Of a stretch of DNA of 64,000 nucleotides, positions 3,681 to 62,588 are shown piece by piece. Source of the stretch: a virus (lineage: Duplodnaviria; Caudoviricetes); the IMG/VR virus record IMGVR_UViG_3300011832_000025, one strand, 5' to 3'. The first letter of the stretch is position 1. Each line of letters begins with the position of its first letter. A model generated the notes under the pieces. The model saw only the letters and a program-made list of their open reading frames with translations. It was not told the origin of the DNA and searched no databases. The translations under genes were made by a program, and so were the position numbers.

Positions 3681-4142
3681 ATGGACGCCGTCTTTTATTT
3701 TCACTTTTACGCCCAGAACAATGATTTTACACCTACGCGTTCGTTGGCGTTTTACGCCACCAATATTACAACACCGTGGGACGAATTGGATTGGAAAATG
3801 GGCTACTCCGAAGGCGACATTGAAGCCCAGTACGGCGAGCACTGTGGATTGGTGGGGCTGACGATTGAATCAAGCGGAACCAAACTCATTGGGTACAGCA
3901 CTTCAAAAATCCATGAACAACAACGCGGGCCGCTGATGAACGTGTGGCGCGCCACGTTTTTGGAGATTGACCCCGGCTGTGTGGTCGGTGAGGTGTATGA
4001 TGTCACAGATATGGTTGGCACCGTGGATATCTATCGATACGTGAAAGACGCTTACGAACACCAGCAAGCCCAACAATTGCGTGGCACGTTAAACGCACAC
4101 ATCACAACCTGTGCCTCACCCACCGCCACGAAGAAAATGTAG
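3681..4142 (+). CDS. tandem paralog family A, copy 1 (C-terminal KKM tail)
   Basis: MDAVFYFHFY start shared with the neighbours; extended -10 GTGCTACACT at 3644. Confidence 0.85.
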   Translation: MDAVFYFHFYAQNNDFTPTRSLAFYATNITTPWDELDWKMGYSEGDIEAQYGEHCGLVGLTIESSGTKLIGYSTSKIHEQQRGPLMNVWRATFLEIDPGCVVGEVYDVTDMVGTVDIYRYVKDAYEHQQAQQLRGTLNAHITTCASPTATKKM

Positions 4143-4150
4143 GAGAATCC

Positions 4151-4651
4151 ATGGACGCCGTGTTTTTCATTTCATTTTATAAGCCCAACAAAAAGGATGG
4201 AGAGGATCCAATCTCGCACCACCTGGGCTTTTGCATCGGCAATCTGACACAACCATGGAATGAGATCAGAAAGACTGTTTATGAGTGCGAAGAGCAACTG
4301 GAACGCAAATATGGCCCAACCAGTTGGATGGGCGGCGGGCCGTCCAAACGCGTCAATGTCGTTTGGTACCGGTCGTACGAATTGAACGATTGCCATCATG
4401 GTGAACTGATGGAACAGTGGCGTCAGGCCTTTTTGCGCATCAGTCCCGGCTGCACGGTCAGCGATGTGTTAACCTTGAACCTCAACACACTGGCGTCGGT
4501 AACGGATATAAGTGAAGACGCACAGACATTTTCACGCGTCAAACAGGAGTACGAACACCAAGAAGCCGAGCAATTGCGCCAGAAACTCACCGGACTTGTG
4601 TTGAACACCCATGTGCCCACCAAGCGCTCCACTGCGGTTAAGAAAATCTAA
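4151..4651 (+). CDS. tandem paralog family A, copy 2
   Basis: AGGAG RBS; MDAVFF...WRQAF...PGCTVS...EQLR...KKI. Confidence 0.85.
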   Translation: MDAVFFISFYKPNKKDGEDPISHHLGFCIGNLTQPWNEIRKTVYECEEQLERKYGPTSWMGGGPSKRVNVVWYRSYELNDCHHGELMEQWRQAFLRISPGCTVSDVLTLNLNTLASVTDISEDAQTFSRVKQEYEHQEAEQLRQKLTGLVLNTHVPTKRSTAVKKI

Positions 4652-4659
4652 GAGAATGT

Positions 4660-5109
4660 ATGGACGTGATCCTTTATTTGCAATTTATCCATCCGCGCCA
4701 AGAGGTCTCAACGCGCGCGTTGTCGCTGTACGTCACCAATAGTGGCACAATGTGGGGACAATTGAACGCAGATGTTTTATCGTCCACCACCAATGTCAGC
4801 GCTCAATACGGTGAGATTCGTCCAATAATGTCCTCATCGAGAATGAGCATCATCAGTTGTATGTCTTTGGAAATTCACGATGTCCAAACCCAAGACCAAT
4901 GCATGCAAATGTGGCGGGAAACAGTGATGCAAAAAATTCCGGGCTGTGTGATCAGTGATGTGGTGGATGTGACCGATGCCTGCGGTTTCGCTGAAATTTG
5001 CGAACACACCCACCGCACGCACGAACAACAGCAAGCCGAATGTTTGCGCACGACCCTCACCACTCATGTCACAGCACCCGCCAGTGTGGCACCGTCCAAA
5101 AAACTCTAG
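4660..5109 (+). CDS. tandem paralog family A, copy 3
   Basis: MDVILY...WRE...PGCVIS...EQQQAECLR...KKL. Confidence 0.85.
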   Translation: MDVILYLQFIHPRQEVSTRALSLYVTNSGTMWGQLNADVLSSTTNVSAQYGEIRPIMSSSRMSIISCMSLEIHDVQTQDQCMQMWRETVMQKIPGCVISDVVDVTDACGFAEICEHTHRTHEQQQAECLRTTLTTHVTAPASVAPSKKL

Positions 5110-5117
5110 GAGACATC

Positions 5118-5564
5118 ATGAACGCCGTGTTTCATTTTCACTTTTACGACCCCAGCGATGATTTTACGCCCGTGCGCTCGTTGGCCTTTTACGCCACCAA
5201 TATGACCACAACCTGGGAACAATTGGATGAGACAATTGCCGTTTGCGCCGAAGACATGGACGCCAAATACGGCGAACACTGCGCGTTGATTGGACGTTCT
5301 GATCTTAACACCATCGGGTACGCCTCTTCGCACTTTGAAGGAACCCGCCAAGACCAAGTGATGGAGGCCTGGCGCAATGTTTTTGTGCAGAGAATTCGTG
5401 GTTGTGTGGTGGGGGATGTGTGCGATATCACCAGTGTGGACAATCTCAATGAAATCTTTCAACGCGTCCAAGACGCTTATGAACAACAGCAAGCTCAACT
5501 GTTGCGCGACCGATTGAATGAGCATGTCACAACACCCCAGACCGCCCCCCTCAAAAAAATGTAA
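5118..5564 (+). CDS. tandem paralog family A, copy 4
   Basis: AGGAG RBS; closest to copy 1 (DFTP.RSLAFYATN); ends KKM. Confidence 0.85.
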   Translation: MNAVFHFHFYDPSDDFTPVRSLAFYATNMTTTWEQLDETIAVCAEDMDAKYGEHCALIGRSDLNTIGYASSHFEGTRQDQVMEAWRNVFVQRIRGCVVGDVCDITSVDNLNEIFQRVQDAYEQQQAQLLRDRLNEHVTTPQTAPLKKM

Positions 5565-5574: not shown

Positions 5575-6039
5575 ATGGACGCTGTATTTTATTTTTCGTT
5601 TTACATTGACACCTCTGACGACGATGATGAATACAACACTCTCACTGTGGGGTTTTACGTCAGCAACATTCGCAAACCGTGGAGCCAATTGGAAGAGGAT
5701 CTCGCTGATGTGGCCTCTGAGTTGGAGATGGAGTACGGTGTGCACGACTGGGGAACCTTGTCGGGCGCGAACGCTATTGGGTACCACTCCTCTGAGGTGA
5801 AAGAGGAGCACTGCGACGAATTGATGGAGCGGTGGCGCCAAGCGTTTATGGAGCGCGACCCAGGTTGTGTTGTCAGCGCGGTGTTTGAAGTCCCCAATAT
5901 GGGGGACATGAACGACGACGCCGACATTTTGCAATACATAAAAAACGCCCAGGAACAACAGCAGGCCCAACAGTTGCGCGACACCTTAAATCAACATGTG
6001 GCGAACAGGGGTTCTGTCGTCGCGCCCAAAAAGATGTGA
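5575..6039 (+). CDS. tandem paralog family A, copy 5
   Basis: AAGGAG RBS; MDAVFYFSFY...PGCVVS...KKM. Confidence 0.85.
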   Translation: MDAVFYFSFYIDTSDDDDEYNTLTVGFYVSNIRKPWSQLEEDLADVASELEMEYGVHDWGTLSGANAIGYHSSEVKEEHCDELMERWRQAFMERDPGCVVSAVFEVPNMGDMNDDADILQYIKNAQEQQQAQQLRDTLNQHVANRGSVVAPKKM

Positions 6040-6067: not shown

Positions 6068-6493
6068 ATGTCCAGCGTTTTTTATATAAATTTTAGACCG
6101 CACCATCATCATGTGACATATGTTGGGTTTTATATTGACCATGCAACACCCTGGAATGAGCTTGCAGATGATCTGATGGCATGTATGTATGAACTGGAAA
6201 AAACCTATGGGGTTTTTGATTGGACAATCAGTGAAACACATGGGAACATTTTTGGGTGCGTTTCCCATTTGGCCCCCTCAAAGCATGAAGACGTGGTGCG
6301 CGCCATCCGTCAAACCCTTCACAATTGCACACTGGGTCCGGTGTGCACAACAAACGCTTATACAATGCAGACGCAAGAAATTCTGCGCACCACCGCCCAA
6401 GCGTACGAAGAACAAAAGATCGAGCAGTTGCGCGCTCAGTTGCACGCACATATTGGCACGGTTGCGTCTATTGGACAACCCAAAAAGATGTAA
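6068..6493 (+). CDS. tandem paralog family A, copy 6 (divergent)
   Basis: MSSVFYINF...TPWNEL...YG...EQLR..L..HI...KKM. Confidence 0.8.
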   Translation: MSSVFYINFRPHHHHVTYVGFYIDHATPWNELADDLMACMYELEKTYGVFDWTISETHGNIFGCVSHLAPSKHEDVVRAIRQTLHNCTLGPVCTTNAYTMQTQEILRTTAQAYEEQKIEQLRAQLHAHIGTVASIGQPKKM

Positions 6494-7208: not shown

Positions 7209-10200
7209 ATGTATTTCAATAAGACAAATACCATGAATGTGGAAACCATTGTAAAAAATCACTTTACCCCTCAAGAAACTGAAGTCGTGGGGGGTAAACT
7301 CCCCGCATTCCAACGCTTTTCTCAAACATCCAAAGCGGCGTGGGCGAGAACCTCGGAAGGCGATTTTGTTTCGATACTGGCACGCGAATTGGCGGTTCTT
7401 AAAATTTTCAATGGCGTGACACAAATTGTTGTTCAGCGCATGCAAAATGCACAGTTGCTGGGGTCAGACGTTTCTGTCGGGGCAACGATAATGGAAAGCG
7501 AATTTCATAAAATGACCCAAACCGTGTTGTTCGAAATTCTCAAGCATTTGCGAACCGTAAATTTTGTCGCGGATCATAAAATTGCCAATACGTTTATGGA
7601 AGAGGTTGCTGAAGTTGCCCAAAAGCATGCAAAACCAATGTCGAATTTTGCGCCGGCTCCCGGAATAAAAATGGTTCCCGTTGCGGATTTTGCGTCCCCG
7701 CTGGATTTAATGAACGCAAACAATAATCCGTTTTTCAACCAAATACTCACCGAAAGCCTGGCAACATTTTGCAAGCAAGCCTCGGAAGAAAAAATAATAT
7801 CCGCTTGGAATTTTCTCAGCGACACACTTCCCCGTACAATTCAACGCTATGAAATATGTTTGGCGGAATGTGCGTCCAACAACTTATTGGATGTGGTGAA
7901 GAATAATATCGATTATGTTGGAAAGGCGTTGAATTTTAACGAACACGATCATGCGGTTTTTTTATTCTTGCGCCGCATGTCTGCTTCCCGCCCTGAATTT
8001 GAAATAGCGTTTAAGAGTTTTCAAGAAATTTTGTTGTCGGCCGTGGACAACGCAAGCGAAGTTCCCAGCGGCACCACTCAAAATCTTGTACGTGCAGAGA
8101 GCAAACTCTCCACATTGGGGCTGTTGGAACCCGCAAAAAAGATGGAGTCATCTCGAGTGTGGGGTTTAATGTCGCAGCAGTTTATTCAAGCGACCGAAAA
8201 ACAGTACGACACTCCTTCTGAATTGTTCTTCCAGTTGTCGGAAAAAACATTGCAGATTGTGCCCCGTAGCTCCGATTTGGACGTTCAACATTTCAAACAC
8301 ATGTCCAACGATTTTAACAATTTGGCCATTGCATTAGCCTCCCACACACCATTAAAAATTTTGCTGTGTGGCAAACAAGGTTCGGGCAAGACTGCTGCAT
8401 TGCACACAGCCTTACCGACACAGCGTGCATTTGCTGTTCTTGAATCATCTGAGGTGGCAAACGCCAAAAATGGATCGTTGAAAAAGATGCGAACCTACGC
8501 GCCACTGTGTGGAAATCCTGTATTGCTCATTGATCAAGCTGATGAAATTATTGCGAAGGAAAAAGACGGAACAACATCCTTAATCAAAGAACAAACAGAT
8601 ATCCCGACCACCGAAGTGTGGGTGGTGAGTGATCTTAAAAAAGTCCCCGCTGAAGCCATGAGCGCGTTTGATTTGGTGGTGACCATTCCTCAAATGCCGT
8701 TGGACCAACGTCTGCAATTGTCCAAGCAGTTGTTCGAAGACACCTACGTTGCCGAACAAGTGGCCAAAACCTGCGTCACCCCCAATGAAATTCAACGCCT
8801 GCACCATTGGTCACAAATCAGTGGGCAAACACAATGGAAAGAATTGTCAATTAAAGCCAGTGGGTTGCAACAAGCGTTGGTGAAAGCGGGAACCAGCAAT
8901 CAAGAATTGCCCTTGACCGTTGTCTCCCCCAATGAAAACACCGCGGGGTTTGAAAACGTGGTGGGTTGCGACGGGATTGTGCAACAAGCTCGCGCCGCCA
9001 TTTCCTGTTTCCGCAACCCGGAAAAATTCAAAAAATTGGGCGGCAAAGTGCCCAAGGGGTTATTGCTCACCGGCGCACCCGGAACCGGGAAAACCCATCT
9101 GGCCCGGGCCATGGCCCACGAGGCGGGGGTGCCGTTGGTGTGCGCGTCGTCCTCGGCCTTGGCCCGCAACCCCGAACTGATTGGGGTGGCGTTTGAAGAA
9201 GCCAAACGCCAAGCGCCGTGTATTTTATTCTTGGACGAAGTGGACGCCATTGGCGCCACCGCCGAACAAAGAAACGGCGCGTCGGCCGATCCCCAGCGCC
9301 AAGCCATTCTCAACCGTTTTCTGGTGGAACTGAGTGGTTTTGATGATCTGTCGCAAGTGTTGGTGATCGGCGCCACCCACCGCCCCCATGTGTTGGACGA
9401 TGCTTTGAAGCGGTCGGGGCGTTTGGGCTGGAATATTGACTTTGAGCAACCGCGACGCGACGCCCGCGAGCAGTTGTGGAGGCATTACGGTCAAGACATG
9501 CAAACCTCCAACATCGATTGGCCGCGGGTGGCGCGGATCTCGGTGGGGATGTCGCCCGCGGACATTGCCGAAGCGGTCAACCGTTCCGCGCTCAACGCCG
9601 CCATGGACAACGCCGATTGCGTGGAAACCAAACACCTCATTCGCGCCGTGGACCAAGTGGCCTGGGGCATTGAGGGCACCCGCAATTGCACCGACGCGCA
9701 AATTTACAACACCGCCGTGCACGAGGCGGGGCACGCGTTGTTGGTGTGGGCCCACAACATCACCGTCATGGACCAAATTTCGGTGAAACCCTCCAACGGC
9801 CATTTGGGATTTGTCCGCCATTTCCGCGACGAAGACACGATTGGAACGACCCACGCAGAGATGTCCCACCGCGTGGAAATAGCTTTTGGCGGGTTGGTGG
9901 CCGAGGAAGTGGTGTTGGGGCAACGCTCCGCCGGCGCGGTCGCGGATTTGAAACAGATCCGACGCACAATTGCGCAAATGTTCCGCGACGAAGGAATGGG
10001 GTCAGCCGTGATGGGCGCCGACTGGATCACTGCATCCCCGGATACGCAAAAAATGATCGAAGACGAAGAGTTGGCGTTTGCCAAAAAGCGCAAAGACAAT
10101 GTGATCAAATTGTTTGAACACAACAAAGCGTTGATTAAAATGGTGGCCAATCAATTGGTGACTCACCGAGAAATGTCTGGGGAAGAATTTGAAGCGTTTT

Positions 10201-10322
10201 TGGCCGAAAAAGGGATCACCCGCGCGGCGTTTGCCAACCCACCCGCCGTGGCCGTGGCCAATGATGTTGCTCCAGTGGAAAACCACGAAGAGCAAAAATC
10301 CAAGGTGTCACACAAGATGTAA
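7209..10322 (+). CDS. soluble FtsH-like tandem AAA+ / peptidase M41 protein
   Basis: Walker A motifs GKQGSGKT and GAPGTGKT; Walker B LFLDEVD; SRH RSGRL; HEAGH zinc motif; no transmembrane segments seen. Confidence 0.9.
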   Translation: MYFNKTNTMNVETIVKNHFTPQETEVVGGKLPAFQRFSQTSKAAWARTSEGDFVSILARELAVLKIFNGVTQIVVQRMQNAQLLGSDVSVGATIMESEFHKMTQTVLFEILKHLRTVNFVADHKIANTFMEEVAEVAQKHAKPMSNFAPAPGIKMVPVADFASPLDLMNANNNPFFNQILTESLATFCKQASEEKIISAWNFLSDTLPRTIQRYEICLAECASNNLLDVVKNNIDYVGKALNFNEHDHAVFLFLRRMSASRPEFEIAFKSFQEILLSAVDNASEVPSGTTQNLVRAESKLSTLGLLEPAKKMESSRVWGLMSQQFIQATEKQYDTPSELFFQLSEKTLQIVPRSSDLDVQHFKHMSNDFNNLAIALASHTPLKILLCGKQGSGKTAALHTALPTQRAFAVLESSEVANAKNGSLKKMRTYAPLCGNPVLLIDQADEIIAKEKDGTTSLIKEQTDIPTTEVWVVSDLKKVPAEAMSAFDLVVTIPQMPLDQRLQLSKQLFEDTYVAEQVAKTCVTPNEIQRLHHWSQISGQTQWKELSIKASGLQQALVKAGTSNQELPLTVVSPNENTAGFENVVGCDGIVQQARAAISCFRNPEKFKKLGGKVPKGLLLTGAPGTGKTHLARAMAHEAGVPLVCASSSALARNPELIGVAFEEAKRQAPCILFLDEVDAIGATAEQRNGASADPQRQAILNRFLVELSGFDDLSQVLVIGATHRPHVLDDALKRSGRLGWNIDFEQPRRDAREQLWRHYGQDMQTSNIDWPRVARISVGMSPADIAEAVNRSALNAAMDNADCVETKHLIRAVDQVAWGIEGTRNCTDAQIYNTAVHEAGHALLVWAHNITVMDQISVKPSNGHLGFVRHFRDEDTIGTTHAEMSHRVEIAFGGLVAEEVVLGQRSAGAVADLKQIRRTIAQMFRDEGMGSAVMGADWITASPDTQKMIEDEELAFAKKRKDNVIKLFEHNKALIKMVANQLVTHREMSGEEFEAFLAEKGITRAAFANPPAVAVANDVAPVENHEEQKSKVSHKM

Positions 10323-11413: not shown

Positions 11414-11983
11414 GTGCAATGTTTCAAACGGGTAACGGGGTGGTATGTGGAAACATCAACTGATACGATTGTTGAAAAACGAGCAAGCCTGAACAATTAC
11501 CAATTGTTGGTTGCAGCGGCATCGGAAGGAAACGCGCAAGAGTTGCAACGCTTATTGGTCGACACCGAAGCCCACCAAAATTCCAGTGAAGCGCTGCGCA
11601 TGGCCGCCCGCAAAGGGCACCATGAGTGTGTCAAACTGTTGATCCCCGTTTCTGAGCCTCGGCGTTTGGACAACCAAGCCTTGTGCTACGCCGCCGCCGG
11701 TGGCCATTTTAAATGTATCCAATTGCTATTGCCGGTCTCCAACCCCAAAGCAAACGCATCACTGGCCTTGCAGTACGCTGTGGAATTTGGTCATCTGGAA
11801 ATTGCCGAACTTTTGTATCCTGTTAGCAAACCCGACAGTGCACTGCGCAACCTCAAATACAATTTTCCGCACGAGTATAAAATGTGGGGCTGGTTGCAAC
11901 GAAAAATCACAGACGAGCGATTGGCCGTCCGCTTAGCCAAAAAATTAAAGGATCGGGGAACCTCCCAACAACGAAAAATGTAA
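11414..11983 (+). CDS. ankyrin-repeat protein (RKM tail)
   Basis: Repeats ALRMAARKGHHECVKLLIP, ALCYAAAGGHFKCIQLLLP and ALQYAVEFGHLEIAELLYP; exact start uncertain. Confidence 0.85.
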   Translation: MQCFKRVTGWYVETSTDTIVEKRASLNNYQLLVAAASEGNAQELQRLLVDTEAHQNSSEALRMAARKGHHECVKLLIPVSEPRRLDNQALCYAAAGGHFKCIQLLLPVSNPKANASLALQYAVEFGHLEIAELLYPVSKPDSALRNLKYNFPHEYKMWGWLQRKITDERLAVRLAKKLKDRGTSQQRKM

Positions 11984-13111: not shown

Positions 13112-13828
13112 ATGACACATTTCCAGCGTCCCCATCATCAACGCATTGAGCGGGTTCTTAAAAGTTTGAATTCGGAAATATTAGAACAAACCCAGTGTTT
13201 TTTCGCAGGAGGGACAGCCATTTCCTTGCAATTAAACGAATACCGCGAATCGGTCGATATCGATTTTTTGTGCGCCTCGGTGGCAGGGTACCGTTTATTG
13301 CGAAATATTGGTGTTTACGACCAAAATTTGGGAGAATTGTTTACCACGCCTATAACCTATATGAGAGAAGTCCGTCGCGACCAGTATGGTATTCGGACCG
13401 TTTTGGCTGTGGAAGGTGTGCCCATCAAATTTGAAATTGTCAGCGAGGGGCGTATTGCTATTGACGGGAAGCATCATCCCCAACTGGGGGTGCCCACTTT
13501 AAACACCGAAAGTCTGTTTGCCGAAAAATTATTGGCCAACGCCGACCGTTGGGCCGACGCTTCTGTGCTCAGCCGCGATATGATTGATATTGGGTTTATG
13601 CTGAGAAATTGGGGCGGTATTCCTCAATCCGCGTGGGATAAAGCCTTGAGTGTGTATGGGCAATCGGTGCTGGACAGTTGGAGCGCTGCGCTTAAAAAAA
13701 TGCACAATCCCGAGTATTTCATGAAGTGCCTCAAAGGGATGGATATTGACCAAACAGAAGGCAACCAGGTTTTACAGGCTCTGGATGATCAATCTTTACC
13801 CACTCCCCAACCGCGCGCAAAATTGTAA
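13112..13828 (+). CDS. nucleotidyltransferase AbiEii/AbiGii-family toxin
   Basis: FAGGTAI...YRESVDIDF motif; EKLLA...RD..D. Confidence 0.85.
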   Translation: MTHFQRPHHQRIERVLKSLNSEILEQTQCFFAGGTAISLQLNEYRESVDIDFLCASVAGYRLLRNIGVYDQNLGELFTTPITYMREVRRDQYGIRTVLAVEGVPIKFEIVSEGRIAIDGKHHPQLGVPTLNTESLFAEKLLANADRWADASVLSRDMIDIGFMLRNWGGIPQSAWDKALSVYGQSVLDSWSAALKKMHNPEYFMKCLKGMDIDQTEGNQVLQALDDQSLPTPQPRAKL

Positions 13829-13845: not shown

Positions 13846-14463
13846 TCACAATCGTAAAAAAGGCGCCTGGTTTGTTTGCCCTTGGGGTGAAGGGACTGGC
13901 ACACACACATCCACACAGGAACCGCGCTGAGTCATCAAATAAGCTATCGCGTCGTCTTTGGAGACGCGCAAACGTTCTTTAAGAGTGTGGGCGATTGCCG
14001 CGGATTGTTGAGGGGTCAACCCCTTGGCTTGCAACCGCCCCAATTGTTCCACAAAGGGCTGAGCCAATTCAGGAAAACGTTGTTGAAACACCGCCATCAT
14101 CGCTTCCAACACTTGCGGTTCGCATGTCCCCTGTTTCCAAGACCACCGCGCTTGTGCTCCCGTCAAGCGTGTTTTCTCAAGCGGCAAAACAGTCAAAAAA
14201 GGCATGGCTCCCAATAACACCCCCATTAAATTTGACGCTGTGTGGAACGAGAACGGTTCCACAACAAAGGCCATCGCCATCCACACCCCCACCACCGCGC
14301 CCATCACCGGCTCAGAATTCCAGCGGGACAGAAAATACCGTTTAAGCCATTGTTTCCACCCGGTTTGCGGCGTGTGAAGCCAGGTGAGCTCACGTTCAAA
14401 CACATCAAATTGACGTTGCAACGCAACGCAACCTCTCAAAGCGTCAATGTGTTTGAATGTCAT
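13846..14463 (-). CDS. 2-TM membrane protein, family-B-like (ends FLRL)
   Basis: Two hydrophobic helices; VDV...LRL tail. Confidence 0.7.
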   Translation of the reverse strand: MTFKHIDALRGCVALQRQFDVFERELTWLHTPQTGWKQWLKRYFLSRWNSEPVMGAVVGVWMAMAFVVEPFSFHTASNLMGVLLGAMPFLTVLPLEKTRLTGAQARWSWKQGTCEPQVLEAMMAVFQQRFPELAQPFVEQLGRLQAKGLTPQQSAAIAHTLKERLRVSKDDAIAYLMTQRGSCVDVCVPVPSPQGQTNQAPFLRL

Positions 14464-14637
14464 TACACGCACCTGTAACAAGATGTTTCTAAACTACACA
14501 AACTTTTGACAAACACAAGCTAATCTCCAATAAACCAGAAGCCGGAGGAGTTTGCTCCCTGTGTGTTACTCCATAAGGTTGAAATGGCCCCCAGGTGTGT
14601 GCTAGACTTCGGCTCCGTATTCCTGGGACGTGTTTGT

Positions 14638-15339
14638 ATGACCACTTTTATCCAAAACCTGGACCATACCTTAAAAAATATTGAAGACACCAAAAAATTT
14701 CTCAAAAGCCCTGAAACCCACCGCGCCATTGCTCTTAAAAATAAAAAATGGCATTGGGAAATTCCGGAAGAGGCGTGGCTGTTTCTAATGATTGTGACCC
14801 TGATTCCCACCCCACAACTTCTGTGGAAATTCAGTCCGTCCCTATTGACGACCACTTTGGTGTTGGGTGGGTTGTGCGCGGTTTTTATGTATTTGAGCGC
14901 GGTGTCCAGCGGCGTGGACCTGTTGCTGAGAAAATGGAAGAAAAACGCGGCTCTGCTCGGATTAGGGAAAAATATTGTAACGAAAGATGATTTTAACCGT
15001 TTGAATAAAACCCCCACCTTGTCTGAACGGGTTGAAACCATTGAGATATGCCAACTCGCCGGCGCCACGGCCAATCAAATCACCCAGTTGTACGCTTTAT
15101 CTTCCGACAATCTTCCATCCGCTTGGTGGGACACCTTGCGCGCAAAGGCTCACACAGAAATGCAACGGCTAACGGCTGAAAAGGTCAAGCAAAATAAAAT
15201 GCATGAGCAAGAGGAACGCGACCGTCTTGCTCACGAAAAAATTCAGGCGCACTTAAACCCCACTGTTGAAGTGGAGCAAATGCCAGACTTAAAGAGGGAA
15301 AGCACGAAAAACGAATTCTGCTCTGGGATTAAACTGTAA
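14638..15339 (+). CDS. family B membrane protein
   Basis: MTTFIQNLD...TKKFLKS; AGATANQITQL; NLPSAWWDTL; VEVE...IKL. Confidence 0.8.
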   Translation: MTTFIQNLDHTLKNIEDTKKFLKSPETHRAIALKNKKWHWEIPEEAWLFLMIVTLIPTPQLLWKFSPSLLTTTLVLGGLCAVFMYLSAVSSGVDLLLRKWKKNAALLGLGKNIVTKDDFNRLNKTPTLSERVETIEICQLAGATANQITQLYALSSDNLPSAWWDTLRAKAHTEMQRLTAEKVKQNKMHEQEERDRLAHEKIQAHLNPTVEVEQMPDLKRESTKNEFCSGIKL

Positions 15340-16960: not shown

Positions 16961-17755
16961 ATGAGCACCAACCTAAATTTTACAAACCCGTTATCTCCAG
17001 ATCTTTTTCGCGCATTGGAAGCCGGGGACTTGAGTGGCGCCACGGAAATAATCCGTGCCGCGCGCGCGTCCGACCCCAAATTAAAGGATTTGGCGGAAGA
17101 TCTCATAAGGTCGTACTGGGTTTTACGATATGATCCCGAACCGCCCCCATCCGCACCCTTTAAAGACAACTTGAGCGACCTCCGATTAAGCCGCCAACTA
17201 ACCGTATTGTCCTGGTTTGAGTTGGAAGAGCAATTGCGCATTGTTAACTGTTGCGTGGAAACAGACGATATGTGTTTGCCCATTATCGAATGTTTCAAGT
17301 GGGGAAAATCGGTTTCCCCCAGCAGCCAAAAAGCTCTTTCTTTTTTAATTGCGCGGTGTTTGGCGCGCCAACAGTTTAACCAGGCCGACGCTTTGTTTCA
17401 ACGCAGCGGTTGGTCGTTGCGTTCTCTTTGCGAATATCCGGCCATGGCGTACAAACAGCCATATGCCGAAGGGTGGTTTTGTGTTCAAAACATGAAAGAC
17501 GTGCCTTTTTATTGCGCTGTATTGCTCAATTACACTCCGGAATTTTTAACGTATGTGCTTGAGCGGGGGGTCACCCCAGCTGAAGTCTCCGCGCTGTTGC
17601 CACTGATCGATAATTTAACCACAGAGCGCCACAACCAAGACGTCATCACAGAATATCTCCAAAAAACCTTTCCTTTGCTTCAATCGCAATTGGAAAAAAT
17701 AGCTCTTTCCGTGGCGGTGTGTTCCCAAGGCACAACCTCCAAAAAGAAAATGTAG
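16961..17755 (+). CDS. hypothetical protein (KKKM tail)
   Basis: 264-aa ORF ending LQSQLEKIALSVAV...SKKKM. Confidence 0.8.
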   Translation: MSTNLNFTNPLSPDLFRALEAGDLSGATEIIRAARASDPKLKDLAEDLIRSYWVLRYDPEPPPSAPFKDNLSDLRLSRQLTVLSWFELEEQLRIVNCCVETDDMCLPIIECFKWGKSVSPSSQKALSFLIARCLARQQFNQADALFQRSGWSLRSLCEYPAMAYKQPYAEGWFCVQNMKDVPFYCAVLLNYTPEFLTYVLERGVTPAEVSALLPLIDNLTTERHNQDVITEYLQKTFPLLQSQLEKIALSVAVCSQGTTSKKKM

Positions 17756-17879
17756 AAAAACCCCGGGGCCTTGCGTATAAGTTTTAATGATACCCATTCG
17801 CGCTCGAAGTTAGCTTCTATTCAGGCAACCATTTTTCATCTCTGGTATGATCGCAAGTGACCAATTCACCGAGAATGTT

Positions 17880-18497
17880 ATGACCCATTTTATTGAGGCA
17901 CTGGAAACCGCATTAAATTCCGTGGAACGAGCTAAGGCGCACGCCGCCAGTCGTTGGTATAAATTCCAAAACCTGTTTGCCTGCCCCTCTAAATCGGCGT
18001 GGGTAACTATATGTTCGACTGCGGTATTGTTTGTTGCGTCGCCTATTGCGAGCCTTTCTCTCCATATGCCTATTGTGTTTTTAGGGGGGATGGGTGCTGG
18101 AGTATTGTGTTTCTTTTTGGGGTTGCACCTCACTGAACGGGCAAGGTGTTTTAAAGACACCAAAAATTCCACCGTGTTTACGGTAGATAACGAAACCTCG
18201 GTCACCCAACGCGTGGAAATTTTAGAGCAATGTGTTGCGGCGGGGGCCACAACCAGACAAATTCAAGCTTTGCAAACGATTGCCAAATGCAACGATGTGC
18301 CTTCGGCGTGGTGGAGATTTGTGAAGCATGTGGCCCAAGAGGAATTGCGCCGACAACAAGACGAGCAAGACCAACACACACAAAGAGAACAAGAGCGCTT
18401 AGCGCATCAAAAACTCCACACTCCACTTTTCGTGGACGTGGTGGCGGAAATGCCCGTACCACAAGAAGCGAGTTCAGACGGACGGTTAAAGTTGTAA
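17880..18497 (+). CDS. family B membrane protein
   Basis: MTHFIEALE..VERAK; AGATTRQIQAL; DVPSAWWRF; VDV...LKL. Confidence 0.8.
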   Translation: MTHFIEALETALNSVERAKAHAASRWYKFQNLFACPSKSAWVTICSTAVLFVASPIASLSLHMPIVFLGGMGAGVLCFFLGLHLTERARCFKDTKNSTVFTVDNETSVTQRVEILEQCVAAGATTRQIQALQTIAKCNDVPSAWWRFVKHVAQEELRRQQDEQDQHTQREQERLAHQKLHTPLFVDVVAEMPVPQEASSDGRLKL

Positions 18498-27287: not shown

Positions 27288-27377
27288 AAACAAAAGCCCG
27301 GGAACACGCAATTCCCGGGCTTTTAGGCAAATGCACGCGGTTGTGATACAATGATGTAAATTTTGGCGGTTTTTCTT

Positions 27378-30681: not shown

Positions 30682-30814
30682 GGGATTTAACCTTAATAAT
30701 GGGAGGCAATGCAATAATTATGTCATATTGTATCAAAAATTTTGTGGTAAAAGAATATGTTGTCACACTTAAGATTTGTGCTACAGTCAGGTTTTTTTAT
30801 AGGATGGGCTGCAT

Positions 30815-31699: not shown

Positions 31700-31750
31700 T
31701 TTCTGTTATACTGAAATTATACTAAAGTTGCCTGTGGAAAGGAGAAGGTG

Positions 31751-32281: not shown

Positions 32282-32338
32282 CCCTTGTATTGCGCAAACC
32301 TGTTGTGGTACACTTCCGGCATAAACCCCGGAGGTTAT

Positions 32339-49212: not shown

Positions 49213-49701
49213 TCAGGCTTTCAGTTTCCGCGCGGCGGGCTTCCAGCCGTTGACAATATCCAGTCCCGCCTGCGACTGCTCACTCACGTCCACCGCTGCT
49301 TGAGCAACCGCCCGCAAAAACAGCTTTTTCTTGCTAGGCAATTTGGAATTGCGCGAAACACCCTTCAGCGCGTCAAAGTTGTTGCCTTCCAAATTTTGCG
49401 CCACCAAGGATTTTCGCACCGCCGCCGCCCATTCGTTGTGACCAAACAAATCCATAGTGGAGCGCAACATTTGCACGCGGGTGCTCAAAGAATGCTCGTT
49501 ATCAGCTTTCAAATACTCGTAAAACGTGCGGCCCGTGCTTTGCACCACTTCCGCGGCGGTCAAGTTTGGCGCGGTGTGGGATTTGGAATCGGCAGCGGTC
49601 TGCGCGCCCGGCAATTGATTGAACCAATGGGAGAAGGTCTTCCACAATTCAATACTCAAAACAATGGCGTTGTCACGGGATTGGATGTCGTCAAGAGACA
49701 T
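49213..49701 (-). CDS. hypothetical protein
   Basis: ORF with a GAGG RBS; terminator at 49175-49199. Confidence 0.7.
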   Translation of the reverse strand: MSLDDIQSRDNAIVLSIELWKTFSHWFNQLPGAQTAADSKSHTAPNLTAAEVVQSTGRTFYEYLKADNEHSLSTRVQMLRSTMDLFGHNEWAAAVRKSLVAQNLEGNNFDALKGVSRNSKLPSKKKLFLRAVAQAAVDVSEQSQAGLDIVNGWKPAARKLKA

Positions 49702-49839
49702 AAGCACCTCGGGTGTGGGAATAGTCCTATTATACGGTGTTCCCCCACCACGGGCAAGCTTTTTTAGTCGGAGTATCCGAATAAAAGGTGTTTAAAATCA
49801 AAGACTTATGGTTGTGTTGTTGGCCGTTCAGGCAGCCAT

Positions 49840-51132: not shown

Positions 51133-52290
51133 GTGGACTGTTTACTAAAAATCCATCCTTTTGAAGAAAACCTTCACGGATTCACAGCTGTGCGTAACGC
51201 ATTAAATGAGTACATGGGGTTGCCATGTCTGGCCAATGAGTCCACCCGAAACTGGTTAAAAGCGTTCAACCACACCGATGACATTCCGTTGCAGGCTTTT
51301 CACACCTTAATTACCCACAACGCTGCGTTTTTGCAGGAGTTGGGGGCTCAAAAGTACACTGATTTCATGGATAAAAACGCACTATGGGGGTGTATTGCTG
51401 AAAAAATGCAATTGGATGTTATTTATAATATGGATCAGTGGGTCCTAGAAAAACTTGTGTCCGATCTTCGTTTTTTTGTCACCACGGCTTTACTGTCTTC
51501 CTCGGCTCTCACGCAGCACAAAGGATGGAAAGAGTGTTTGGAAAAGGTTTCCGTGGAGGAGTTTTCAGACATTGTGGGCAACATTTTGAAATCATTCGAA
51601 ACCCTTTTTGCCACCAACACCTGTACCGTAGAGGGTAAGGTGTTCAATCGGGACGATGTTTTGATGGAAATGGCCCAACGGGTCATGGAAAACCTGTCTC
51701 GCGTATGCGTCCCCCACGATGTGGCCAAAATCTGGTGGACGGTTTTGCAAACAGACTTCAATTTAACTGACTCTCTGGGGAGGCAGCACTGGTGGAAAAA
51801 CATCGGGAAGGTGTACAGCACTTTATTGTTGGCTTATCCGCCCGAGGACGTGGACGGTGAGTTGCTGTTGGATCTGCTTAAGACAGACTTTCCGCTGTCG
51901 GAACAAACAATCCACTGGTCGGCTTTAAAAGTGTTATGGTCAAACATGTTTGTGGTTAAAGACCCCCCATACCCAGAAAGTGTGCTCAAGGCAATGAGCA
52001 TTGTTTCAAGCATGCCCACCACCACCCGCGCCCAAATGATTGAACAGGGCAACTTTGAGTGGTCGCGCATAAAACCGCTTCTGTCCGGAATGTGGTCCAA
52101 AGACACTTTGCGTTTTTTCAATCGCTATGCGGATATGTTTACCGACCAAGAACTCACAAAATGGATTGGCGAGCAAACCCTGGACTCCAGTTTGTCGCAA
52201 CTGTGCGATTGGCAAACCAAACAAAAACTTCAAAAAGAAGTCGGTCAGACTCGTAAAAAATCCGCTGGCAAAAAAACAAAAAAAATGTAG
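51133..52290 (+). CDS. hypothetical protein (TKKM tail)
   Basis: 385 aa; GGAG RBS. Confidence 0.8.
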   Translation: MDCLLKIHPFEENLHGFTAVRNALNEYMGLPCLANESTRNWLKAFNHTDDIPLQAFHTLITHNAAFLQELGAQKYTDFMDKNALWGCIAEKMQLDVIYNMDQWVLEKLVSDLRFFVTTALLSSSALTQHKGWKECLEKVSVEEFSDIVGNILKSFETLFATNTCTVEGKVFNRDDVLMEMAQRVMENLSRVCVPHDVAKIWWTVLQTDFNLTDSLGRQHWWKNIGKVYSTLLLAYPPEDVDGELLLDLLKTDFPLSEQTIHWSALKVLWSNMFVVKDPPYPESVLKAMSIVSSMPTTTRAQMIEQGNFEWSRIKPLLSGMWSKDTLRFFNRYADMFTDQELTKWIGEQTLDSSLSQLCDWQTKQKLQKEVGQTRKKSAGKKTKKM

Positions 52291-55928: not shown

Positions 55929-56915
55929 ATGAATCAAAATATGCTATCGACCCAAAGCGAATGGGAAGACCATTTGTCTTCCGTTTTGCTGCAAGACCCC
56001 TTAAAGACGTCGTGGAAAGAACGTCCCTTTCACGCCTGTGTCAGCGAAGAACAAGCGCGTTGTGTTGTAGCGGCCTCTCAATCGCTCGGAAATTTAAACA
56101 TCACCTATTTGTCGGCGCTGAAAAAATGGTATGAACTGTTGTACCGCGCAATAAGTTTGTGCCCCTCAGCAACGGCGGAGGCTTGCGCAATCGCTCAGAA
56201 GATGTCGCGGCGGGTGGGCCACAAGATAGAAATGAGTTGGCGCACGCGTTTAACTTGGGACAACGTGTCCAGCAAATGGCTCGCCGACGCTATTTCGGAA
56301 CAGCGCTATGAGGTGGTGCGCGCCTTGTTGCAGGCCCACCATTTCAACGGAAATCTGAAAGAATTCGCGGGCAAAGCTATAGCCCGCGACGATGTGAAAA
56401 TGCTGGAAATATTTTTGGAACACATTGACCCCCGTATCAACAAAAATGAGCTTCTCAAAGCATCTGTCTGGGCGCGCGCCATCCAATGTTTTGATCGGCT
56501 GTGGGTTCCATCCACCTTTGCCAACAAAACCCGTGTCCTGCGCACGGCTTTGTCTCAAAAAGAATGGGAAACCCGCCACAGTGGAAGGGTCAAATCGTTT
56601 TATACGTCCAGGGCCGACAAAGAAAAAGACATTCAAGAACATGAAAAGCAGATCAGGATTTTGGAGGAGATGATCCAGCGTCTGATTTGTGAATCAAATG
56701 TTGGTGAGATATTCTTTGATCAAAAAGTGACCCCTCAAAGCGCTTGGATGATTGAACATCTCTCCCCTCAAGCCATGCGGCGGTTGAAGTCGCCCCCCTG
56801 GTACGACAAAGTCAAAGACTTCCCCGAATATCAACAGCGTTTACTGCGTGAAGAAATAAACCGCGCCGCGCGCAAAAGCGGGCGGGCGGAAGTGGGACGC
56901 GCCCGCAAGATGTAA
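55929..56915 (+). CDS. ankyrin-like repeat protein (ARKM tail)
   Basis: AISEQRYEVVRALL, AIARDDVKMLEIFL and HIDPRINKNELL repeats. Confidence 0.75.
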   Translation: MNQNMLSTQSEWEDHLSSVLLQDPLKTSWKERPFHACVSEEQARCVVAASQSLGNLNITYLSALKKWYELLYRAISLCPSATAEACAIAQKMSRRVGHKIEMSWRTRLTWDNVSSKWLADAISEQRYEVVRALLQAHHFNGNLKEFAGKAIARDDVKMLEIFLEHIDPRINKNELLKASVWARAIQCFDRLWVPSTFANKTRVLRTALSQKEWETRHSGRVKSFYTSRADKEKDIQEHEKQIRILEEMIQRLICESNVGEIFFDQKVTPQSAWMIEHLSPQAMRRLKSPPWYDKVKDFPEYQQRLLREEINRAARKSGRAEVGRARKM

Positions 56916-57458
56916 TTACAGTTTAAGTTGTTTTGGCGTAACAGTGGGCTCCTTGAGCTCGAACAGCCGTTGCTCCAGGGGCGCTTCCACCTCAACCACC
57001 GCGCTGTGTTCTTGAATGCGCGCCTCCAAAGCGTAACGCAGGCTTTGCCACCAAAACGCATGCCACTGGTTGGGATTTTCCAGAAGGGTGGCAATGTTGC
57101 GCACCAGAGTTTGATCGTTTTCAGTGCCCACTTTTTGCAGGTTCTCCAAAAGCGTGAGAATACGGCCTTTGGAGGTTTCGCCCATCTCACTGACCCGTTC
57201 GCTGTACACATACTGCACAACAGAAACCGCCAGCACGAGCGCCATGATGCTCCAAAACATGGGCAACACCCCCGGAGCAGAAATGAACCCCAGCACCAAC
57301 CCCATAAAAACAAACAAAACACCAAAACCTTTCCCGGTGGTGGTCAACCACAGCACAGGAATTTTATTCACTTTCAGCGCAAAGCGCTCAAACCACCCAC
57401 CCCGAATCTGAGGCCGGGGGGTTTTCAAAAGCCGAGTTAACCGTTCTGTGGCGTTCAT
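56916..57458 (-). CDS. family B-like 2-TM protein
   Basis: 2 TM; HAFWWQSL; VEVE...QLKL. Confidence 0.75.
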   Translation of the reverse strand: MNATERLTRLLKTPRPQIRGGWFERFALKVNKIPVLWLTTTGKGFGVLFVFMGLVLGFISAPGVLPMFWSIMALVLAVSVVQYVYSERVSEMGETSKGRILTLLENLQKVGTENDQTLVRNIATLLENPNQWHAFWWQSLRYALEARIQEHSAVVEVEAPLEQRLFELKEPTVTPKQLKL

Positions 57459-57561
57459 GGTGTTCTCCTGATGAGAGAACCACTTTAGCACAAGCGGCAC
57501 CACTGGTTCAATTCCTCCCACTGTTTATTAAAATACCAGTGGGAGGAGATTCATAAATCAC

Positions 57562-59911: not shown

Positions 59912-60349
59912 TTAAATTTTACGTTTGGCGGGCGTTTCCTCCTTTCCACTCAACGCCGCCGCTGTGAGAGCGTCTTCCAATCGTTGACGCTGATCTTGGG
60001 AAATGGCGGTGAGCAAGGCCTGTTTTTGTTGAGTGGTCCACTCGTGCATAGCTGTCACCACCCACCCCACGTCCCAATGCCGCGCCAACGCACGGATCGT
60101 TTCACAACTGCTGTGGTAATTCGTTTCGTTCCCCAAATGCTCCCACAGCCATCTGTTGTTATGGGTCAGATCCGAAACCGGCGCTAAAATTTCCACCACA
60201 TTGTGCTGTTCGTAAAAAATCGCCAACGCCAGACCCCAACTGTTGTTAGCTCGCGGATCGCATAAGGGAAGCAATCGAATAAGATTGGAACAATCTCCTT
60301 GTTTGCAGGCTTCGTAAAAATTGTTTTGAAGAACACCATCCGCGGACAT
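59912..60349 (-). CDS. ankyrin-like repeat protein (KRKI tail)
   Basis: LLPLCDPRANNSWGLALAI...VVEILAPVSD, same type as 11414. Confidence 0.8.
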   Translation of the reverse strand: MSADGVLQNNFYEACKQGDCSNLIRLLPLCDPRANNSWGLALAIFYEQHNVVEILAPVSDLTHNNRWLWEHLGNETNYHSSCETIRALARHWDVGWVVTAMHEWTTQQKQALLTAISQDQRQRLEDALTAAALSGKEETPAKRKI

Positions 60350-60603
60350 AACTACCTATACAAAGGGCCTTTTCGCCAATCATATCAATATTTGGCAATT
60401 TTTGCAAAATGGGTTAGAATTTTTTTAATGTGAGATCTTTTGGAAAACCTCGAAAAACCAAAAAAACACACATGACTTTAAATATTTTTGGAAATTAGCT
60501 CGAAAATGATAAGGTTGGTTGCGCGTTGATACCCCGCAGATAAAAATGTAACGGGGATAGGGCGGACAAATAAGAATTGTGCCTCATAAAACAGGAATGT
60601 ACT

Positions 60604-61323
60604 ATGTTGTTGGTGGTGATTGATAAAAACGGGTGTACGGGCCGATCCATGCCCCACTGGATAGCAGAAAGCCCCTCCTCCTGGGAAATGTGGGAAGACC
60701 CATTCGCCCCCACCAACAAATTTTGGAACGTCTGGAACAAAGCCTCCGAAAGTTGGGACCCCACTGAGGGGGTTATACTTGTAGACCGGTGCAATCAATG
60801 GTTGGGAAGCGTACAAAATCGGTGCTCCGTATTGCAGTTTCACGCGTTGGATTTTCACCCCCTTGAAAATTCTCTTATTTGTTTTTCTTTGAAGAAATTG
60901 TGGAAAATGAAACGCTTTACCCAATACAACAATTGCGACGGGTTAGACCGGGACGAAATTTTTAAATTGCGCATGAATTTTAATCACAATCTTCAACCTT
61001 TGCCCTTGTGGGTGCAAAACGAAGAAGACTTTCTTCGACACTTGGAAAAAGAAAGCTTATATCCAGGGGCTCCTTTATTGTTACCATTGGATCCTCCCGT
61101 TGGATGGAAATTTGAAGAGTGGAATAAAAATCCAGTGGGGTACGCCGAAATTTTAGAGCGGATCCTCTCTCAAACCGATTTGCCGACAAAGGCCATTGAC
61201 CTGTGGACACACGTCTTTCCTGGCGCCCAAGAAGCAGCATTGCGTGTTAAGCAAAAAAAAATATTAACAAAAGAAGTCTCTATGGTGGAAAACCCACTTG
61301 CCTATAAAACCAAGAAATTGTGA
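60604..61323 (+). CDS. hypothetical protein, paralog of 61854 (TKKL tail)
   Basis: V.ID..G..G, FW..W..A, VD...QW.GS.Q and PPVGW shared with 61854. Confidence 0.75.
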   Translation: MLLVVIDKNGCTGRSMPHWIAESPSSWEMWEDPFAPTNKFWNVWNKASESWDPTEGVILVDRCNQWLGSVQNRCSVLQFHALDFHPLENSLICFSLKKLWKMKRFTQYNNCDGLDRDEIFKLRMNFNHNLQPLPLWVQNEEDFLRHLEKESLYPGAPLLLPLDPPVGWKFEEWNKNPVGYAEILERILSQTDLPTKAIDLWTHVFPGAQEAALRVKQKKILTKEVSMVENPLAYKTKKL

Positions 61324-61329
61324 GGAAAA

Positions 61330-61812
61330 ATGAATATTGATATCGATGTTGTAACCACCCGAATCGCTCAAAATATTAAAATTTTACAAGAAGCGTTTTC
61401 TGATCAGGAGTTTGGGGCCTCTGTCCAAGAGGGTGATGAAACCATTTGGATAATGGGGGCGACCAGCGCCATCGAGGAATTTGTGAAAACAATGGTGCCC
61501 GTTTTGTTGTCCGATGATGAAGACACAGGGCTAAATGTTGAAATGAAATTGAATGCATTGGATTGCGCTTGCTCTATGTTGGCGATTTGCATTGCCGACG
61601 AGAATCAAGATTTACCCGCCAAAATTGTGGTTTCCAACGCAAGCAAAATGAGTGGGGAAGACGAAGGGGATGAGCCGCTGGTCATTGATGCCCAGGGGTT
61701 TGCCGCTTATATTTTGAGAAACTACCAAGAGCAGCTCAAAATTTTAAAAATGGTGTCGTACAGTGTAGACGCGGCGATATCCTCGCCGAGGAAAAAGAAA
61801 CACAAAATGTAA
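61330..61812 (+). CDS. acidic hypothetical protein (KHKM tail)
   Basis: GAGG RBS; 160 aa. Confidence 0.75.
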   Translation: MNIDIDVVTTRIAQNIKILQEAFSDQEFGASVQEGDETIWIMGATSAIEEFVKTMVPVLLSDDEDTGLNVEMKLNALDCACSMLAICIADENQDLPAKIVVSNASKMSGEDEGDEPLVIDAQGFAAYILRNYQEQLKILKMVSYSVDAAISSPRKKKHKM

Positions 61813-61853
61813 GCACAGGGCTTTAAAAAGAAGAACACCAAAAGGTGGTTAAA

Positions 61854-62588
61854 ATGGTAATTGTATTGATTGATGACCAGGGCGCGCGCGGCAAGTTGAT
61901 GGATTTGTCCGATGGAGGTTTTGTGGGAGCCCCTTACAGTGTTCCCAACTTTGCGCATCCGTTTTGGATAAAATGGGAAAACGCCCCAGATGTTGCCCTT
62001 GCCCCTTTGCTGCGGACCAGTGGCGCGGCGGATGTGCAAATGGTTGTGGTGGACACCCTCCAGCAATGGATTGGGTCTTGCCAGTCGTATTCGGCCGCCA
62101 ATGTGTATTTTCCGTCCACCCACCAAATGTACTTAGACTACCCCAGCCAAACCCTCAAAGAAATCGAAGACCTGTTTGTCCAAAATCGGTTTTCCCATTA
62201 TCTGGTGGATCCGCAAGGCGAGGTGGTGGAAGAGAATATACAATCTTACACTACCCAAGAGTTGTCTTGTTTTGAAAATCTGCGTTGCGCAATTAAAGAG
62301 CGCCGGGGCGGGGAAGATTACGAAGGCATGCCCATTCGCTTGTTGGTTAATCCCCCTGTTGGGTGGAACCACTTCTCCCTTTCGGGTGGGACTGGGTTTG
62401 CAACCCTTCTGCGCCATCTGTTCCCTGTCCATGATTTCACCGCCCAAGAAGAAGACGCATGGGTGAGGGCCGACCCCCGCCTTCAAGAGGTTTTTGATGA
62501 CCACCGCGCGGGCGTGCAGCGCGCTGTGTTGCAGAATGCTCTTGTAGCTGTTCCACCTTTACCGCCGCTCTCCAAACGCAAGATATAA
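61854..62588 (+). CDS. hypothetical protein, paralog of 60604 (KRKI tail)
   Basis: Shared motifs including PPVGW. Confidence 0.75.
   Translation: MVIVLIDDQGARGKLMDLSDGGFVGAPYSVPNFAHPFWIKWENAPDVALAPLLRTSGAADVQMVVVDTLQQWIGSCQSYSAANVYFPSTHQMYLDYPSQTLKEIEDLFVQNRFSHYLVDPQGEVVEENIQSYTTQELSCFENLRCAIKERRGGEDYEGMPIRLLVNPPVGWNHFSLSGGTGFATLLRHLFPVHDFTAQEEDAWVRADPRLQEVFDDHRAGVQRAVLQNALVAVPPLPPLSKRKI

Follow-up and report, generated by a model that had tools for sequence, protein, structure and literature searches.

Many of the proteins encoded in a 64,000-nt stretch of DNA recorded as viral (IMG/VR record IMGVR_UViG_3300011832_000025, Duplodnaviria; Caudoviricetes; the whole stretch is called the window) end in a common C-terminal tail, the last two residues of which are Lys or Arg followed by Met, Ile or Leu. 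This tail, or tag, is a shared, selected and portable signal at the level of the protein. It is exclusive of N-terminal signal-like segments, it is borne by fast-evolving accessory proteins, and it is found in several uncultured lineages. By analogy with known systems, the tail may be an export signal for effector-like proteins, read in the cytoplasm and of the kind found on substrates of type IV secretion systems (T4SS), a reading to which we assign a probability of about 0.4. Literature searches yielded no description of this C-terminal motif.

Frequency of the tag

The original prediction, made from the sequence of the window, held that at least 31 proteins end in [K/R]-[M/I/L]-stop. Translation of the 40 codons before each listed stop shows this dipeptide as the last two residues in 31/31 open reading frames (ORFs). 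With a greedy, non-overlapping call of ORFs of at least 80 aa, the window contains 76 ORFs, so that ~40% (31/76) are tagged; this value is a floor, because some of the untagged ORFs are probably spurious. The internal rate of the same dipeptide in these proteins is 1.8% (binomial P = 1.5e-33 for the tagged count). As controls, the rate of [K/R]-[M/I/L] endings is 3.5% among 877 stop-to-stop frames left uncalled, and 2.5% among 398 ORFs from 80 ordinary proteobacterial genome loci. The frequency is thus well above chance (31/76 vs. 1.8%–3.5% expected and 2.5% in proteobacteria). Chance or composition as the source of the tag is ruled out by the internal rate, the uncalled frames and the proteobacterial loci. 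Per locus, the tagged share is between 27% and 67% of ORFs.

Architecture of the tail

Position -2 is a Lys in 29 of the 31 window proteins, and 30 of the 31 have K, R, H, L, I, F or Q at -3. Lys and Arg are nearly balanced at -3 (10 vs. 8 among the 31), with Lys clearly ahead at -4 and -5. A profile of 80 non-identical tagged tails, pooled over the window and its related loci, gives K or R at 61% in position -3 and at 35%–38% in positions -4 and -5, with no acidic residues at -1 to -3 and only ~1% at -4 and -5. In the same profile, positions -4 to -11 are enriched in S/T/A/G (30%–46%) and in Pro (6%–16%), and Pro falls to 0%–3% from -16 to -25. Hydrophobic residues peak at -12/-13, -16, -20 and -22, which is the spacing of an amphipathic helix, and D/E amount to 9%–19% at -10 to -17, close to the values in untagged tails. 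The mean net charge of the last eight residues is +2.45 in tagged vs. +0.71 in untagged proteins. The order of the tail is, therefore, a Pro-free amphipathic helix, a linker of 6–10 residues rich in P/S/T/A, a basic patch at -2 to -5 and a terminal K-Met/Leu/Ile-COOH, for a total of ~25 residues. The helix and the P/T/S-rich spacer attributed to soluble members by the original prediction agree with both this profile and the AlphaFold2 model of the tandem family described below.

The membrane members had been assigned another form, V-[E/D/S]-V with an [L/I/F]-K-L end, and a form of this kind is indeed present in six proteins with two predicted transmembrane segments (two-TM hairpins), where V-[D/E/S]-V is located ~20–25 residues before a hydrophobic-[K/R]-L end. 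These proteins are 200–260 aa long, with TM segments 3–10 residues apart where two separate ones are predicted. They end in FLRL, GIKL, RLKL, NFKL, KLKL or QLKL (some paralogs in RFLL or SISL) and constitute a two-TM hairpin family with a hydrophobic-x-Leu variant of the tag.

Selection on the protein rather than on the nucleic acid

Nine kinds of codons occur at -1 in the window proteins: ATG (15), TTG (5), CTG (3), ATC (2), ATA (2), and CTC, TTA, CTT and ATT (1 each). Among Lys codons, AAA represents 69% at -2 vs. 78% in the bodies of the same genes. Because of the nine codons at -1 and the normal Lys codon use at -2, selection is placed at the protein level. Met is ~3× more frequent at -1 than expected from its share among M, I and L. 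The tag is found at convergent gene ends, before terminators and within operons, and it holds in lineages ranging from 28% to 48% GC. A DNA or RNA motif, or an overlap with a downstream ribosome-binding site, is ruled out by the codon variety, the convergent and terminal genes and this range of GC.

The terminal Lys-Met/Leu/Ile could also be a favored context for translation termination instead of a sorting signal, since a basic residue at -2 and a bulky one at -1 reportedly improve termination in E. coli. On the other hand, there is neither a codon preference at -2/-1 nor a bias in the base 3′ of the stop codon, the signal reaches 25 residues upstream in the form of a linker and a helix, conserved genes in the same operons are untagged, and the tag is maintained from 28% to 48% GC. 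We consider that this explanation has very little chance of being correct.

Carriers and non-carriers in the window

The tagged ORFs of the window, one untagged partner gene and one gene with a probably decayed tag are as follows.

3681..4142 (+), tandem 150-aa family, copy 1; ends TKKM
4151..4651 (+), tandem 150-aa family, copy 2; ends VKKI
4660..5109 (+), tandem 150-aa family, copy 3; ends SKKL; helix 110–138 and floppy 11-aa tail in AlphaFold2
5118..5564 (+), tandem 150-aa family, copy 4; ends LKKM
5575..6039 (+), tandem 150-aa family, copy 5; ends PKKM
6068..6493 (+), tandem 150-aa family, copy 6; ends PKKM
7209..10322 (+), soluble FtsH-like protein, two P-loops, HEAGH, no TM; ends SHKM
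11414..11983 (+), ankyrin-repeat protein; ends QRKM, as do the L001 and L002 orthologues
13112..13828 (+), AbiEii-type nucleotidyltransferase, 54-aa extension beyond the domain; ends RAKL
13846..14481 (-), two-TM hairpin protein, CVDVCV; ends FLRL; a 41%-identical orthologue retains the tail
14563..15339 (+), two-TM hairpin family, TVEVEQ motif; ends GIKL
16961..17755 (+), orphan; ends SKKKM
17847..18497 (+), two-TM hairpin family, FVDVVA motif; ends RLKL
19898..20794 (-), orphan; ends RRHKI
27363..28214 (+), orphan of 283 aa, 3′ of the uS2-like gene; ends KRRKL
28449..29054 (+), orphan; ends KKQKM
29185..30714 (-), ankyrin-repeat protein of 509 aa; ends NKKKM; a 35%-identical orthologue ends KSKM
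30815..31699 (+), orphan; ends KKRRM; a 25%-identical L099 relative ends KRRM
31748..32281 (+), orphan; ends KGLKI
32285..32941 (+), two-TM hairpin protein, VSVSVD motif; ends NFKL
32977..33600 (+), membrane protein, paralog of 32285..32941, FVEVFT motif; ends KLKL
39972-40304, upstream of HipA, its helix–turn–helix (HTH) partner (HipB-like); untagged
40294..41541 (+), HipA-type kinase, 35-aa extension beyond the domain; ends TKLKM
44451..45401 (+), orphan adjoining AIM24; ends VRKM; L099 relatives (24%–31% identity) end TKKM and VRKL
47273..47887 (-), weak ankyrin match; ends VRKL; a 27%-identical orthologue ends TPKI
49213..49707 (-), probably a decayed tag; ends RKLKA; the L099 orthologue ends KKHKM
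51133..52290 (+), orphan of 385 aa; ends KKTKKM
55929..56915 (+), orphan of 328 aa; ends RARKM
56916..57521 (-), membrane hairpin protein, VVEVEA motif; ends KQLKL
59912..60349 (-), orphan; ends AKRKI
60577..61323 (+), orphan, paralog of 61845-62588; ends KTKKL
61330..61812 (+), orphan; ends KKKHKM; identical protein on 16 contigs from many samples
61845..62588 (+), orphan; ends SKRKI

A second possible decayed tag is seen at 25340-25870 (-), which ends RKHKLK.

By BLAST clustering, at least 20 unrelated families carry the tag. The window has three ankyrin proteins, and the adjacent 20 kb another five (four of them tagged, one ending RKV). In HipA and AbiEii, counted here as effector-like, the tail is appended after the domain. 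Among the untagged genes are those for an AlkB-like oxygenase, TnpB, DUF305, the uS2-like protein, AIM24, YiaAB, bactofilin and MCP, as well as a 1708-aa helicase-nuclease, an autotransporter and the HipB-like HTH protein.

A hydrophobic signal-like segment at the N-terminus is present in none of the tagged proteins and in several untagged ones, in line with the absence of the tag from signal-peptide proteins noted in the original prediction. The tag had also been described as absent from "host-like" genes. The absence is confirmed, but several of these genes, AIM24 and YiaAB among them, have conserved and syntenic counterparts in a related contig (L099) at 48%–86% identity. They are therefore the lineage's own conserved genes rather than recent captures from a host. 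The carriers of the tag are cytoplasmic, fast-evolving accessory proteins without signal peptides, and the conserved genes are untagged.

The uS2 homologue (26577-27287) is truncated and very divergent (best PDB E-value 9e-15), with a 77-aa N-terminal extension and without the coiled-coil insertion. The tagged 283-aa gene that lies 3′ of it was considered as EF-Ts and is not recognizable as such. The uS2 homologue looks like an accessory paralog, and not like a ribosomal gene, because no recognizable tsf gene follows.

The tandem family and the FtsH-like protease

The AlphaFold2 model of the tandem 150-aa family, built with 17 paralogs, contains a confident alpha/beta domain (predicted local distance difference test, pLDDT, of 91.9), in which the last helix, 110–138, is followed by an 11-residue tail of low confidence (pLDDT 63). 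The 17 paralogs have 23%–36% identity, with only eight invariant columns, two of which are the terminal lysines. Foldseek finds no match to this model in the PDB at E ≤0.001, and the best VIA-align hits (Z of 7.2) are generic two-layer alpha/beta folds.

The FtsH-like protein (7209-10322) comprises a ~370-aa unrecognized N-terminal region, a P-loop module (GKQGSGKT, Walker B LLIDQAD), a canonical AAA module and the M41 HEAGH motif. Only seven relatives (64%–93% identity), all of them metagenomic, are found among 5.8 billion proteins; they end in QSM, QKM, HKR or NGY. The contigs of these relatives, L001 and L002, are syntenic with the window. The gene order, with the tandem array, a 148-aa gene and then the FtsH-like protein, is kept in L001, L002 and L093.

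With such a neighbor, the tail could be a tag for degradation or unfolding, read by an AAA+ machine that would be either a host-type ClpXP (through a MuA-like motif) or the FtsH-like protease of the lineage itself, and the accessory proteome would then have a short or regulated lifetime. The tail, flexible, basic and ending in a hydrophobic residue, resembles C-motif 2 of ClpX, to which the RRKKAI end of MuA reportedly belongs. The protease, soluble and with two AAA modules and an intact HEAGH, comes right after six tagged tandem genes in an order that is conserved in three other loci, and tags for AAA+ machines are likewise portable and dependent on a free C-terminus. However, the toxins HipA and AbiEii are tagged and the HTH partner is not, which is the reverse of the toxin–antitoxin logic, where the antitoxin is the unstable partner. 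Further, the FtsH-like protein occurs only in close relatives of the window, whereas the AT-rich loci sampled (see below), which also bear the tag, show only a normal FtsH, and a degron maintained under strong purifying selection on 30%–60% of the accessory proteins would be costly. We regard degradation as an unlikely function of the tail.

Divergence of the carriers and spread of the tag

In L001 and L002, orthologues retain the tail down to 35%–41% identity, with a different linker; with L099 included, this is the case for orthologues at 25%–41% identity. The contig L099, found via AIM24 (83% identity), is syntenic with positions 43.6–50 kb of the window. Between the window and L099, tagged orthologues have 25%–33% identity vs. 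48%–86% for their untagged neighbors (Mann–Whitney P = 0.002). The tagged proteins are thus the fast-evolving fraction, with the tag itself constant. The window lineage is present on 16 contigs from many runs, the longest of 302,820 bp, and of the 23 genes in the adjacent 20 kb on the right, 17 carry the tag.

Distant relatives of AIM24 led to three AT-rich loci. L100 is a contig of 907,704 bp with 28% GC and Shine–Dalgarno motifs (ENA ERZ27284654 k119_234604), which probably amounts to much of the genome of an AT-rich bacterium not yet described; it carries the tag and its genes are mostly orphans, with proteins of the TerD, GGDEF, Mrr and DUF4116 types. L101 (68.8 kb, 34% GC) has a ribonucleotide reductase (RNR) and a weak YidD match near the tagged genes, and L102 (65.7 kb, 32% GC) has PurA and a normal FtsH. 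Ankyrin and orphan proteins of the AT-rich loci end in ...LPxK...KYKI, KKKM, KHKI, VRKL or KRKI, and in every one of these loci the dipeptide significantly exceeds its internal rate (P = 2.5e-6 to 6.5e-4). Among these AT-rich lineages, the Ter proteins are 61%–75% identical, and only one tagged family is common to them. L103 (metagenome-assembled genome GCA_049318985.1) has the same Ter/AIM24 cluster at 65% identity, and none of its 16 genes is tagged. Because it is present in syntenic relatives as well as in distant AT-rich contigs, the tag characterizes a group of uncultured bacteria instead of a single replicon.

The AIM24 gene of the window is at 43668-44378, and its relatives in L100–L103 lie within or beside Ter genes, the setting in the three AT-rich loci being a TerD/TerC/TerF biosynthetic cluster; L101 and L103 have a full stress-response cluster (TerD, ATP-grasp_Ter, PRTase_2, PELOTA_1/StiP and a C–C bond lyase, with TerC in L101). 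The closest named relatives of AIM24 have 61%–65% identity, and no AIM24 with >53% identity is found in ~400 Alphaproteobacteria and ~400 Gammaproteobacteria genomes sampled. For the PurA of L102, no relative exceeds 51% identity, the closest named ones, at ~45%, being in Pseudomonadota (SAR86, Bradyrhizobium), and the closest MCP relatives are found in Xanthomonadales (46% identity).

Nature of the replicon

About 85 kb was examined, out of a contig that measures 302 kb or more. PHROGs give a single match among 60 orphans, an HNH endonuclease 20 kb to the right of the window. In INPHARED phages and PLSDB plasmids (megablast and tblastn), nothing is found beyond a generic similarity to FtsH or MCP; scans of IMG/VR give no relative and a scan of JGI metagenomes gives one weak match. 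NCBIfam gives only weak matches (CLCA_X and autotransporter repeats); in the window, there is no Rfam match and, with Pfam, no capsid, portal, terminase, shell or chimallin-like family. The locus contains an MCP, a bactofilin and an autotransporter, all conserved among relatives, and this counts against a phage origin. The autotransporter (1139 aa, with PATR repeats and a C-terminal Autotransporter domain; window 62759-64000, L084 11430-14849) implies a host cell, or a genome, with an outer membrane.

Two contigs from unrelated samples, L094 (SRR20718603_79) and L095 (SRR1748808_710), end at the same base, ~500 bp past the HNH gene and ~20 kb to the right; the genome may end there, or this base may mark the edge of a repeat. 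The SRR1748808 assembly also breaks near both ends of the TnpB element (window 22158-24065) and near position 274, which points to a TnpB element that is repeated, or polymorphic, within the population.

If the window lineage is a huge phage or a megaplasmid, the tail could send proteins to an intracellular structure or particle, such as a capsid, a phage compartment, a protein shell, the cell pole or the membrane. The divergent uS2 paralog and the HNH endonuclease would fit such a replicon, as would the common end of the contigs from two samples and the fact that nearly all genes are orphans. The layout of helix, linker and anchor also recalls the cargo-loading peptides that encapsulins and microcompartments use. 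But the PHROGs, Pfam and database results just given bring neither a structural or shell family in the window nor a relative in INPHARED, IMG/VR or PLSDB, and the tag occurs on a 907-kb contig and near RNR, PurA, a normal FtsH and YidD, with the look of cellular chromosomes. The tagged proteins are, besides, too many for virion cargo. Targeting to a particle or compartment therefore seems distinctly improbable.

The tail as a possible export signal

We infer by analogy both the export function and the identity of the machine that would read the tail. A cytoplasmic receptor would recognize the free C-terminus together with the basic patch, gripping this end, with the helix before it remaining part of the folded protein. 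Such a grip is suggested by the near-invariant last dipeptide, the basic patch without acidic residues and the fixed length of the linker. The receptor would then deliver its cargo to Sec-independent secretion machinery, for which the best functional parallel is the coupling-protein step of type IV secretion, and the tagged set would be a large, fast-evolving repertoire of exported effectors. One-step secretion, above all of type IV, is favored because the tag excludes Sec-type N-termini, because toxins but not their partner are tagged, and because of the expanded ankyrin and kinase families, the hairpin proteins with short loops and the quick divergence of the carriers.

Several observations weigh against export of this type. 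The original prediction invoked an element-encoded secretion or conjugation machine, or packaging into a virion, and the corresponding genes are not seen: the window, the adjacent 20 kb and ~100 kb of related loci show no secretion machine of any type and no VirB4/VirD4, Dot/Icm, capsid or terminase gene, and Pfam gives no VirD4/VirB match in the window, the 20 kb to its right, L001, L002 and L098–L102. The window lineage also has a feature typical of large mobile elements or phages, the HNH endonuclease. The consensus matches no known T4SS signal, being based on Lys and not on Arg, without an E-block and with a strict last dipeptide. A tagged share of 27%–67% of ORFs per locus is very high for effectors; the effector set of Legionella is ~10% of the proteome. 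Finally, the FtsH-like protease, which is no obvious effector, is also tagged. What is retained of the translocation signal initially proposed is, thus, a shared, portable signal on effector-like carriers; its restriction to one replicon and a machine encoded by the element are not.

Since no machine was found and the consensus fits neither VirB/D4 nor Dot/Icm signals, the reader may be new. It is conceivable, although doubtful, that the tail belongs to an undescribed sorting pathway of deep-branching uncultured bacteria (GC 28%–48%), with substrates amounting to at least a third of the accessory proteome and with a reader that is not VirD4, DotM, ClpX or PEX5.

If the tail is an export signal, the effector repertoire of these uncultured bacteria could be read directly from sequence with a crisp consensus, and the tail would provide a short transferable peptide that is also a bait for the receptor. 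Even as a degron or a compartment tag, a single tag on 30%–60% of the accessory proteins would be an unusual organization of a proteome. In practice, the tag is a marker by which "dark matter" contigs that defy classification, from many metagenomes, are connected with a single biological group.

Comparison with known C-terminal signals

The substrates of VirB/D4 systems reportedly have unstructured, positively charged extreme C-termini. Like those signals (VirF, VirE2 and VirE3 of Agrobacterium, or the Bep tails of Bartonella), the tail is uncleaved, at the extreme C-terminus, unstructured and net positive (charge of +2.45, pLDDT of 63 and a P/S/T/A/G linker); it is also portable among unrelated proteins, present on ankyrin-type effectors and borne by proteins without a Sec signal. 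It differs by the charge being carried by Lys, so that the R-x7-R-x-R-x-R pattern is not observed, by the almost fixed K-M/L/I and by a defined helix and linker, as well as by the VirB/VirD4 genes not having been found in the loci examined.

The likeness to the Dot/Icm substrates of Legionella and Coxiella resides in the large repertoire of orphan, ankyrin and kinase proteins, in membrane substrates that form hairpins with short loops and in a hydrophobic residue near the end. In Legionella, the transmembrane effectors of the type IVB secretion system adopt an N-in/C-in topology and need a cytoplasmic C-terminal signal (PMC11602083). Several of the six hairpin proteins, with predicted TM segments 3–10 residues apart and a C-terminal tag, conform to that description (PMC11602083). 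The tail is, unlike Dot/Icm signals, basic and without the acidic, Glu-rich E-block at about -10 to -17, and no dot/icm genes are seen in the loci examined.

With C-motif 2 of ClpX (RRKKAI in MuA), the tail has in common a basic cluster and a hydrophobic carboxy-terminal residue on a flexible C-terminus, which is a resemblance only. That motif is on few proteins per cell, whereas the tag is on 30%–60% of accessory genes and on toxins rather than antitoxins.

The peroxisomal targeting signal type 1 (PTS1), [S/A/C]-[K/R/H]-[L/M/I], similarly involves a free carboxy-terminus with a basic -2, L/M/I at -1, and basic residues or Pro upstream, which enhance PTS1. After delivery, the tail could thus act on the side of a host as a PTS1-like peroxisomal signal or as a C-terminal nuclear-localization patch, which would be compatible with export. 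Positions -2 and -1 fit the PTS1 pattern in 31/31 proteins, AbiEii ends in a canonical AKL, and the ankyrin repeats suggest a eukaryotic host. Position -3 fits, however, in 1/31 only (that same AKL), being K, R, H, L, I, F or Q in 30/31 and not S, A or C. The genes are bacterial, with Shine–Dalgarno sites and terminators, and no eukaryotic host is known for these lineages. The targeting of dozens of unrelated proteins to one organelle is implausible, and tagged hairpin membrane proteins are unfit for import into the peroxisomal matrix. An action of this sort on the host side is, in our view, highly unlikely.

The cargo peptides of encapsulins and microcompartments are also short, terminal, preceded by a flexible linker and common to unrelated cargo, but with a different consensus and far fewer carriers, and shell genes are absent from the Pfam matches of the window. 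The KKXX motif for retrieval to the endoplasmic reticulum, with Lys at -3 and at -4 or -5 and any residue at -1 and -2, does not correspond either: in the tail, Lys is fixed at -2 and occurs at -3 in 10/31 only, and the last residue is restricted. The tails, Lys-rich and basic, do not have the character of type I secretion signals, in which the C-terminal 50–60 residues are acidic and poor in Lys, often with RTX repeats, and Pfam detects no RTX repeats in tagged proteins. On these analogies, the tag would function like the known C-terminal translocation signals, yet it departs from the sequence definition of each one with which it was compared.

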